Positions 37,983-39,592 of a stretch of 64,000 bases of DNA are shown one piece after another (the first letter of the stretch is position 1; every line of letters starts with the position of its first letter). The stretch is from contig CAXXLZ010000002.1 of the NCBI GenBank assembly GCA_963675595.2, positions 2,592,001 through 2,656,000 of the forward strand, in the 5' to 3' direction. The notes beneath the pieces were generated by a model, which was given only the letters and a program-made list of their open reading frames with translations, did not search any database and was not told where the DNA came from. The DNA comes from Thermodesulfobacteriota bacterium. GTDB lineage: Bacteria; Desulfobacterota; Desulfarculia; JACQYL01. Both the position numbers and the translations under genes were made by a program.

Positions 37983-38400
37983 CAATCGTAGTTGTGACGC
38001 GTAGTTAAGAGGGATAAACACAAATTCGGGCAGATGAGGACGGCTTAATGAGAAGCGAAGCACGGCTCGAGGATCGCCTCCCCTGCTCGGAATCAGCGAC
38101 GGCCGACTCGCTCCAAGCGGTGAAGAGCCCACAGCCTCCGTATTGTGAGGATGGATAAGGCGAAACCGGTGGCGGAACTCCCGGCTCAATGAGTCGATAG
38201 ATTCTCTGCGTGGGGAAAAGGTGAACGAGCCCTATTCGGAAGCAACTGTGTTCTTTGTCAACTGAGTTGTTTGTCACTGATTCCTATGAAGCTGTAACAC
38301 GGCGCTTGCTAGGCGCGGCACGCGTGGGGCTGCCGCGCGCAAGCACCGCGCCACAGCAGACCACGGCAGCATCGGTTAACCGATGTGATACATAAACCGG

Positions 38401-39369
38401 TCAACTTAATGTGTCTTTGACACCGATTTCAGGCTGTTGGACGCGCCAATGAGTATTGGTTTTGACCATGCTGTTCAGTATGGTCAGAAGCTTACGCATA
38501 CAGGCAGTCATAGCCACTTTGTGCGCTTTTCCAGCTTTAGTAAGCCGTTGGTAGAAGGCTTTGATTACCGGGTTTGAACGGGTGGCGGACAAGGCGGCCA
38601 TGTGCAATACGGCCCGAATCTGGGCGCGGCCTCCCCAAATAGAGCGTTTCCCTCGCATCTTCCCGCTGTCACGATTCAGGGGAGCGACTCCCACCAGGGC
38701 GGCGATCTGCTTACGGTTCAATGCCCCGAGTTCGGGTAAGCGGGTCAGCAGAGTCGAGGAGAGAACGTGTCCCACTCCGGGCACACTTTGAAACAGAGCG
38801 TCTTTTTCCCGCCAAATGGGAGATGCCCGAATCGCCTTGCGGAGTTCCCGGTCCAAGTCCTCAAGGCGCTTCTGGAGCCACGAGATATGGGCCTGGATAT
38901 CCTTGTGCAGAGAGGAGTGAGCGCTTCGAAGACGGTTCTTCTCGGCGGTCAACATGGTTATGATTTGTCCACGCCGATCGGCCAGAGCAGTCAGCGCTCG
39001 CAGCTGGTCGTCCTTCAAAGGCCGAATTTGCGGCCGGACAGCCTGGGCGAAATGGGCCAGGACTGTGGCGTCTATGCGATCGGTTTTTGCCAGTATTCCT
39101 TTGGCCTTGGCAAAATTACGAACATGTCGTGCATTGACCACGGTCACATTCAACCCGGCTCCGGCCAAGGCGCTCGCCACCGGAGTCTCAAGCCCACCGG
39201 TAGCCTCCAAGACGATCATGGAGGGAGGAAGATTTTTGAGATGGTTGATTAAAGCATCAAAATCGGTTTCATGGTTGGTCATCGACCAGGCTTCCTCGCC
39301 GGGAACGACGGCGATTTCAAGCCGGTCCTTGGAGACATCGATTCCCACGAAACAGGTGATCTCGCCCAT
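38401..39369 (-). CDS. IS110-family DEDD recombinase/transposase (322 aa)
   Basis: VGIDVSK, LEATGG, KTDRIDA (DEDD); PGVG; NRDSGK (catalytic Ser); SD GAGGAG before ATG 39369. Confidence 0.96.
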
Positions 39370-39379
39370 GATAACTCCT

Positions 39380-39565
39380 CTCGTACCCAACCTTGCAGAT
39401 GCGGCCTTAAAAGGCCGGGCAACTGTACGGGTTATCTCGAGGAAGGACATGACGGCCCAAGCTTCCAAACGGAGTCCATTTCTCCTGGGGGTCCGGCGGC
39501 CTGTCATGTCCGTGACCAACTTTGCGGGTCATGCCGTCTTCCATTAAGTATGAAAGATGGCATGC
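39380..39565 (-). ncRNA. bridge RNA of the IS110 element (5' hairpin, target-binding loop, donor-binding loop)
   Basis: - strand GGACATGAC..CCGGACCCCC..hairpin..TTTGGAAG..GTCATGTCC (target loop) and CCCGT-ACAGTTGC-..GGCCTTTTAAGGCC..TGCAAG (donor loop); ends approximate. Confidence 0.85.
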
Positions 39566-39592
39566 TAAATATACAAGGGGGTCCGGATTGGA

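Follow-up and report, generated by a model that had tools for sequence, protein, structure and literature searches.

Does the insertion element that lies between ddl and clpB in a Thermodesulfobacteriota genome encode a complete RNA-guided recombination system, and which target does its RNA specify? The locus belongs to a stretch of 64,000 nucleotides (nt) of this genome (assembly GCA_963675595.2, contig CAXXLZ010000002.1, positions 2,592,001 to 2,656,000), called the window below. A preliminary description made from the letters of the window had proposed an IS110-family element using the mechanism of IS621 from E. coli, whose recombinase works with a bridge RNA (Durrant et al. 2024, PMC11208160; Hiraizumi et al. 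2024, PMC11208158; statements on IS621 below refer to the available passages of these two papers). We find that the protein family, the catalytic residues, the two-loop RNA, the guide positions, the CT core and the donor junction all fit a system of this type. We put at about 0.9 the probability that the element is intact, complete, of the IS621 type and recently active, with a target specificity of its own. The whole element spans 38241-39577 on the minus strand, both copies of the CT core included, while the unit itself measures 1335 bp and runs from T 39576 to C 38242. CT is legible at each border (39576-39577 on the left, 38241-38242 on the right), and the limits are identical in all seven full-length copies found in the genome. 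On the minus strand the unit terminates with CACAGTTGC and is followed by TTCCGAA. None of 13 inverted pairs connects the two ends of the element, which thus show no terminal inverted repeats.

The recombinase gene codes for 322 amino acids (aa) (Table 1). The N-terminal RuvC-like part matches Pfam family PF01548 (DEDD_Tnp_IS110; 2.5e-25, 89.5 bits against a cut-off of 29) and the C-terminal Tnp part matches PF02371 (Transposase_20; 1.4e-18, 67.4 bits against a cut-off of 21.3). The best solved relatives are IS621 (PDB 8wt6, E 4.1e-38, 134.9 bits, residues 7-305) and ISCro4 (PDB 9t56, E 6.3e-38). Residues D11, E55, D97, D100 and S235-G236 align with D11, E60, D102, D105 and S241-G242 of IS621, and D11, E60, D102, D105 and S241 are the catalytic residues named in the structure paper (PMC11208158; the numbering of PDB chain 8wt6 is +2 relative to that of the paper). 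The DEDD residues and the serine do not vary in any of the 22 aligned homologues, in line with the earlier claim that the catalytic set is intact. The protein family comprises thousands of members at 60 to 65% identity. A 372-aa reading frame starting at TTG was rejected as the start of the gene; it passes through the RNA, and the starts of the homologues do not support it.

The 196 nt from the left end to the start codon have a minimum free energy (MFE) fold of -79.7 kcal/mol (z -4.16), and none of 200 shuffled sequences was equally stable. The fold comprises a 5' hairpin, then a stem with an internal loop holding a small hairpin, and then a second stem of like design. Orthologues were collected by scanning species genomes with a profile of the 22 homologues, which gave 80 loci with 53 to 62% protein identity; their upstream regions align with the window over both loops. 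Five loci (L024, L032, L035, L063 and L092), in which the motif search missed the target-loop stem, were dropped, and identical rows were collapsed. The set used for covariation and for the covariance model contained 61 of the 69 distinct orthologue stretches, the near-duplicates L038, L053, L076, L080, L089, L091 and L102 and the sequence L075, which has a long insertion, having been left out by eye. The left ends of the orthologues were set by a strict pattern in three registers; a loose pattern misplaced several boundaries.

The 26 base pairs taken from the window fold were paired in 96.3% of 1608 cells (62 sequences), compared to 85.2% ± 0.4% for shuffles and 34 to 46% when the partners were slid by one to three columns. 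Changes on both sides were seen in 20 of the 26 pairs, and helix 1 alone contributed 13 pairs, 12 of them changed on both sides, with 98.3% of its cells paired. The covariance model built from the 61 orthologues, the window being excluded, matched 39377-39512 of the minus strand over its full length (101.6 bits, E 2.8e-21), and the six other genomic copies scored alike.

All guide, stem and flank strings proposed earlier were found at their claimed minus-strand coordinates, and the sequence confirmed a left target guide (LTG) matching the flank at 10 of 10 positions, a right target guide (RTG) pairing with one G-U and a left donor guide (LDG) matching at 8 of 8. The LTG is complementary to the target's bottom strand and the RTG to the top strand. 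Counting occurrences provides weak evidence: in the 64-kb window CCGGACCCCC and ACAGTTGC have exactly two occurrences apiece, one being the guide and the other lying at an element boundary, and two or more matches were obtained in 9 of 100 and 33 of 100 shuffles, respectively. The guides carry weight because these strings occupy columns that covary with the flanks across 61 to 67 orthologues, inside helices with compensatory changes. The RTG columns predicted 4.72 of 5 non-core bases of the orthologues' own right flanks, versus 1.47 ± 0.15 after permutation (61 loci), a value reached by none of 2000 permutations. The LTG columns agreed with the left flank at 6.55 of 9 positions, versus 4.33 ± 0.13 after permutation (67 loci, best of three registers). 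On the donor side, the LDG 7-mer followed by [CT]T occurs once downstream of the open reading frame (ORF) in 64 of 70 orthologues.

The right donor guide (RDG) had been read as TGCAAG. This string is present at 39392-39397 with its G-T wobble and is nearly invariant among the orthologues, but the guide is probably not contiguous. In IS621 the RDG consists of AU, two flipped-out bases, a G wobbling with T and then CAAG (PMC11208158), and the window at 39400-39392 reads AU-CU-G-CAAG. By analogy, CAAG probably pairs with CTTG, the G forms the G.T wobble, two bases are flipped and AU pairs with the AT of CT-TGTAT. Since this layout is that of IS621, the wobble described earlier would be the conserved one, and two additional AU/AT pairs are likely.

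In IS621, each right guide is followed by two handshake bases, which pair after strand exchange with position 7 of the other DNA (PMC11208158). The equivalent bases here would behave in the same way: C 39461 fits the donor G7 and not the target C7, while G 39391 fits the target C7 and not the donor G7. The handshake C was found in 62 of 69 orthologues, and donor position 7 is G in 67 of 69. Regarding the core, both bases of CT are covered by the RTG and by the RDG, and the LDG covers the C alone, as does the IS621 LDG A123-C130. Pairing to CT is not common to all four guides, the LTG reading CC and leaving the core T unpaired; a core-facing CC is also found in the LTG of 6 of 69 orthologues. 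This mismatch is a deviation of one guide and gives no ground to exclude the element from the IS621-type group.

Among the seven genomic copies, five are identical over 1335 bp, one has a single-nucleotide polymorphism (SNP) and one has 15. The SNPs are confined to the ORF, while the RNA region and the ends are identical in 7 of 7. All seven have CT at both junctions, and the element is preceded by CCCC and followed by T(C/T)C. Four are flanked by (C)CCGGACCC-CT-TCC[T/A/C/C]AAA inside a repeat resembling repetitive extragenic palindromes (REP-like repeat), and one lies in unique DNA (CGATCCC-CT-TCCAAG). Copy 4 lies in a second repeat family (GCACCCC-CT-TTCAAA), and the window copy is flanked by GGACCCC-CT-TCCGAA. 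Compared with the guide-predicted 14-mer CGGACCC-CT-TCCAA, the sites showed 0, 1, 1, 1, 2, 4 and 5 mismatches, copy 5 having 2. This target preference of the copies, four of which lie at CGGACCC-CT-TCC[N]AA, also fits an IS621-type recombinase. At the fourth right-target base the copies show A, G, T and C, so any nucleotide is tolerated there. Unoccupied sites in the genome included no perfect one and eight with one mismatch, five of these in the core (four CA and one TT). The preferred natural target, CGGACCC-CT-TCCAA, lies in the REP-like repeat and immediately 3' of a strong hairpin.

The REP-like repeat, which is the main natural target of the element, has about 39 uninterrupted members (for example, G000:C1:610301-610395 and G000:C2:439304-439387). 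It is composed of a 13- to 15-bp hairpin (GGGGAAACC..GGTTTCCCC), GGACCCC, TTCC[N]AAAC and a GC-rich hairpin (GGGTTGCTCGC..GCAACC). None of the roughly 39 uninterrupted members spanning the site has the predicted sequence. The second repeat family, which contains the site of copy 4, gave more than 50 BLAST hits.

At five of the seven sites, but not at the window copy or copy 5, a strong hairpin extends with its 3' arm into the left target. Together with the stem-loop of the ISPpu10 target, which is reported to be an additional specificity determinant, it would favor a target chosen mainly by the protein, through recognition of the REP-like hairpin, with RNA complementarity being secondary. However, the two copies lacking the hairpin still keep the CCCC-T-TCC core context, the roughly 39 hairpin-bearing repeats that stand unoccupied all deviate from the guide-predicted site, and the guide columns covary with the flanks across orthologues. 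We therefore consider protein-directed targeting very improbable and retain selection of the target by the guides.

Evidence from other strains came from the contigs of four public runs (X3, X4, X8 and X12). In run X12, which has the same organism label and represents another sample, the same locus carries the insertion, one C shorter at 39577 (depth 26.3/26.3, one contig). In run X3, labelled as another organism and differing in its flanks at 23 of 342 and 10 of 319 positions, a contig of 13,657 nt joins 38241 to 39582 with four letters between them and thus shows an empty site. This is the sole empty allele found, and it reads CCGGATCCTTTCCGAA on the minus strand, whereas CCGGACCCCCTTCCGAA had been expected. 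Coming from a diverged strain, it neither confirms nor refutes the empty target that had been reconstructed; that sequence does follow from the assembly, but X12 shows one C fewer and the X3 allele is not identical to it. Contig ends in X12, X3 and X8 show flanks absent from the element's own genome, indicating that the element moved recently in this lineage.

The shared locus in X12 is also what a fixed, immobile copy would show, the guide-flank matches then being the fossil of one old insertion and the RNA and protein being no longer made or active. We give this explanation hardly any credence, as the ORF is intact with all catalytic residues kept, five copies are identical throughout, the RNA region has not changed in any of the seven, and other strains display insertion sites absent here, plus an empty allele. 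In 40 genomes of related species we found no full-length element, only a 97-nt partial match (G001) and a 28-nt match (G009, E 7.7e-4, 93% identity). Because the ddl genes of the closest species-representative relatives are only 66 to 69% identical, these genomes were unusable for finding the empty intergenic site. In metagenome contigs, neither a 24-nt stretch of the left flank nor a 25-nt stretch of the left end had any match.

When the two ends of the element are joined, the right end contributes an outward-facing TTGACA and the left end contributes TATATT, separated by a 17-nt spacer. This predicted near-consensus promoter exists only where the circle junction brings the ends together; no sigma-70-like site was detected on the minus strand of the integrated element. 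IS621 has a promoter split in the same way, with the -35 in the right end and the -10 in the left end (PMC11208160). We infer that the element would excise as a circle and that the junction promoter would drive expression of a bridge RNA of about 190 nt together with the downstream 322-aa DEDD/Ser recombinase. Of the two internal loops, the first would read the target and the second the junction of the element itself, where the LDG ACAGUUG-C and the RDG AU..G-CAAG would pair with ACAGTTG-CT-TGTAT. One handshake base after each right guide would be complementary to position 7 of the other DNA, and catalysis at the common CT core would then insert the element.

The left target is one point at which the preliminary description and our data diverge. 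Its match is present at the window copy, but the canonical site, CGGACCC-CT, has one C fewer: four C are found in four of the seven copies, while the window copy and copy 4 show five. In orthologues, the strand from the conserved CCG to the inner hairpin measures 10 nt, made up of 9 nt of guide and 1 nt of linker. Anchored in this way on the hairpin, the LTG reads CGGACCC-CC and matches the four-C sites at every position up to and including the core C, while the core T faces a C. The empty allele of X3, with its 16 nt, has the length expected from a four-C junction.

A number of observations weigh against our interpretation. An Rfam scan of 37900-39900 gave no match at E ≤ 1, and because there is no matching Rfam family, membership of the RNA rests on the purpose-built covariance model. 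The circle-junction joint was not found in the contigs of X3, X4, X8 and X12, in which rare forms are dropped, and none of the public runs listed as holding the locus is recorded as RNA. The available text of PMC11208160 describes IS621 screens as favoring guides that pair with both core bases, while the LTG here has C instead of U opposite the core T. With 4 and 5 mismatches, the window copy in its assembled form and copy 4 are a poor fit to the canonical register. The strand between the CCG and the inner hairpin is 11 nt long in the window, one more than in the 61 orthologues, and the covariance model places an insertion there. Finally, the X3 empty allele differs from the four-C prediction by two C-to-T changes, one in the left target and one that turns the core into TT.

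In an alternative reading, the register first proposed is the true one, with the LTG pairing over 10 nt with a five-C target (CCGGACCCC-C) and both four-C and five-C sites being accepted; the C run at the 3' end of the LTG, which contains five C, and the extra loop nucleotide would allow the duplex to slip by one position. The assembly shows five C at two copies, the loop strand is longer than in orthologues, and X3 holds another junction, which aligns gaplessly with 39551-39586 except for one differing letter and adjoins a flank absent from the element's own genome. Since this match is gapless, sites of the five-C type do occur. On the other hand, four C are found not only in the four copies but also at most contig ends of X3, X4 and X8, which clip at 39580, and the 16-nt empty allele of X3 aligns without gaps only to the four-C prediction. 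Moreover, X12 has this very junction with four C, and the fifth C at the window copy may be a homopolymer error or a polymorphism. We regard the five-C register as a tentative alternative with an appreciable, though smaller than even, chance of being right, and take the four-C register as the canonical one (Table 1).

A more far-reaching idea, which we think unlikely, is that an LTG with five C and a longer loop strand reads left targets in two registers (CGGACCC-CT and GGACCCC-CT) with the core T unpaired, the REP-like hairpin possibly serving as a second, structural check. If true, this would be a natural case of register-flexible and partly core-independent targeting, bearing on the off-target rules for engineered bridge recombinases.

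In X12, the contig with the left end reverses at 39358 (GCGAGATC, then its reverse complement), which looks like a fold-back of the assembly rather than biology.

As far as the available passages on IS621 go, the likeness covers the RuvC-like DEDD domain, the coiled coil and the Tnp domain with its serine, as well as the CT core and an RNA that is encoded 5' of the gene and comprises a 5' hairpin, a target loop and a donor loop. It extends to an LDG of 7 nt plus the core C, an RDG with a G.T wobble and with AU beyond two bases, handshake bases 3' of the right guides, and a -35 in the right end with a -10 in the left end. The two systems differ in that their homology is distant and in their targets, CGGACCC-CT-TCCAA here versus ATCAGGC-CT-AC in IS621. 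The RTG here comprises the core plus 5 to 6 nt, compared to the core plus 2 nt in wild-type IS621, and the LTG has its C opposite the core T. A further difference is the 5' strand of the target loop, one nucleotide longer here than in the element's own clade. The ISCro4 transposase, judged from its PDB sequence alone, belongs to the same family and is an equally good match.

ISPpu10 and ISPpu9 of Pseudomonas putida are, by their description in published abstracts (PMC12288879 among them), also multicopy IS110 elements that insert into extragenic repeats. For ISPpu10, a GC-rich stem-loop lies in the target 5' of the part that is paired; five of the seven sites here have one too, and two of the seven copies are without it.

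The class of bridge recombinases was described in 2024, and thousands of such elements have been catalogued. The element therefore opens no new question and is a good but ordinary new example of this RNA-guided class. It is a well-documented natural one, being complete, with an RNA supported by covariation and with recent movement between strains; the handshake bases, the junction promoter, the target hairpins and the strain polymorphism are what we add for this element. The seven insertion sites amount to a small natural specificity profile. The natural sites give hints for guide design: the fourth right-target base is fully tolerated, none of the occupied sites has a broken CT core, and a one-base slippage on the C run may occur. 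The earlier suggestion that the element is a candidate programmable recombinase is a fair inference.

Table 1. Coordinates of the features of the element in the window
Feature	Position	Strand	Basis or remark
Recombinase gene, 322 aa	38401-39369	-	AGGAG 7 nt upstream of ATG; Pfam and IS621 homology
5' stem-loop of bridge RNA	39531-39563	-	MFE fold; outside covariation test
Target-binding loop	39445-39511	-	Fold, covariation, covariance-model match
Target-loop outer stem, GGACATGAC-A-GGCC with GGCC-GTCATGTCC	GGACATGAC 39503-39511; GTCATGTCC 39445-39453	-	Fold
Target-loop inner hairpin GGAG/CTCC	39471-39485	-	Fold
LTG CCGGACCCCC	39487-39496	-	10/10 match to flank
Canonical LTG 9-mer CGGACCC-CC	39487-39495	-	Homology, 3'-anchored
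RTG TTTGGAAG	39462-39469	-	Pairs with CT-TCC[N]AA; this copy 7/8 plus G.U
Putative target-loop handshake bases CU	39460-39461	-	Analogy with IS621 nt 81-82
Donor-binding loop, outer stem ACCC/GGGT	39377-39444	-	Fold, covariation of helices 3 and 4, covariance-model match
Donor-loop inner hairpin CGGCC/GGCCG	39402-39417	-	Fold
LDG ACAGTTGC	39419-39426	-	8/8; equals right-end 7-mer plus core C
RDG AUCUGCAAG	39392-39400	-	Sequence; layout as IS621 A157-G165
Putative donor-loop handshake bases GU	39390-39391	-	Analogy with IS621 nt 166-167; sequence
Left target flank CCGGACCCC	39578-39586	-	As assembled; one C fewer at 39577 in run X12
Right target flank TCCGAA	38235-38240	-	Pairs with RTG, one G.U at fourth base
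Right end CACAGTTG-CT	38241-38250	-	Sequence
Left donor half-site ACAGTTG at right end	38243-38249	-	Sequence
Predicted -10 hexamer TATATT, left end	39568-39573	-	Computed on joined ends
Predicted -35 hexamer TTGACA, right end, facing outward	38256-38261	-	Computed on joined ends

Regarding the genomic setting, ddl occupies 39593-40570 on the minus strand and its stop codon lies 16 nt upstream of the element, the left flank reading CCGGACCCCC and then TTGTAT. The clpB gene (35324-37912, minus strand) begins about 330 nt beyond the right end. Neither gene is interrupted, and both lie on the same strand as the element; the upstream region of clpB is shifted by 1.3 kb compared to the empty allele of run X3.

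In the window at 39372-39383, the strand that closes the donor loop on its 3' side (CGAGAGG) overlaps the recombinase's Shine-Dalgarno sequence (GAGGAG). Folding of the RNA could thus mask the translation start of the recombinase on the same transcript.

Two remnants of 77 to 84 nt that are 84 to 92% identical to the right end were found at G000:C2:1729086-1729169 (L008) and G000:C2:734818-734896 (L009). Both retain TTGACA and CACAGTTG-CT, and no transposase adjoins them. Before each comes a hairpin like that of the target repeat, and after each comes the second repeat family's right half. The remnants may be miniature derivatives or ancient copies with an internal deletion.

Elements of the IS1111 group encode their guide RNA (seekRNA) at the 3' side. 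Their transposases belong to the same superfamily, whereas the element described here, with its RNA 5' of the gene, has the layout of the IS110 group. The genome also holds eight copies of a second IS110-family transposase, 27% identical (e.g., G000:C2:477083-478090, minus strand), which may belong to the IS1111 group. The bridge-RNA covariance model found no match at this second transposase. Located 3' of its 387-aa ORF is a 31-nt stretch similar to the target-loop stem (L010 1501-1531), and this position suggests an IS1111-type layout with a 3' guide RNA.

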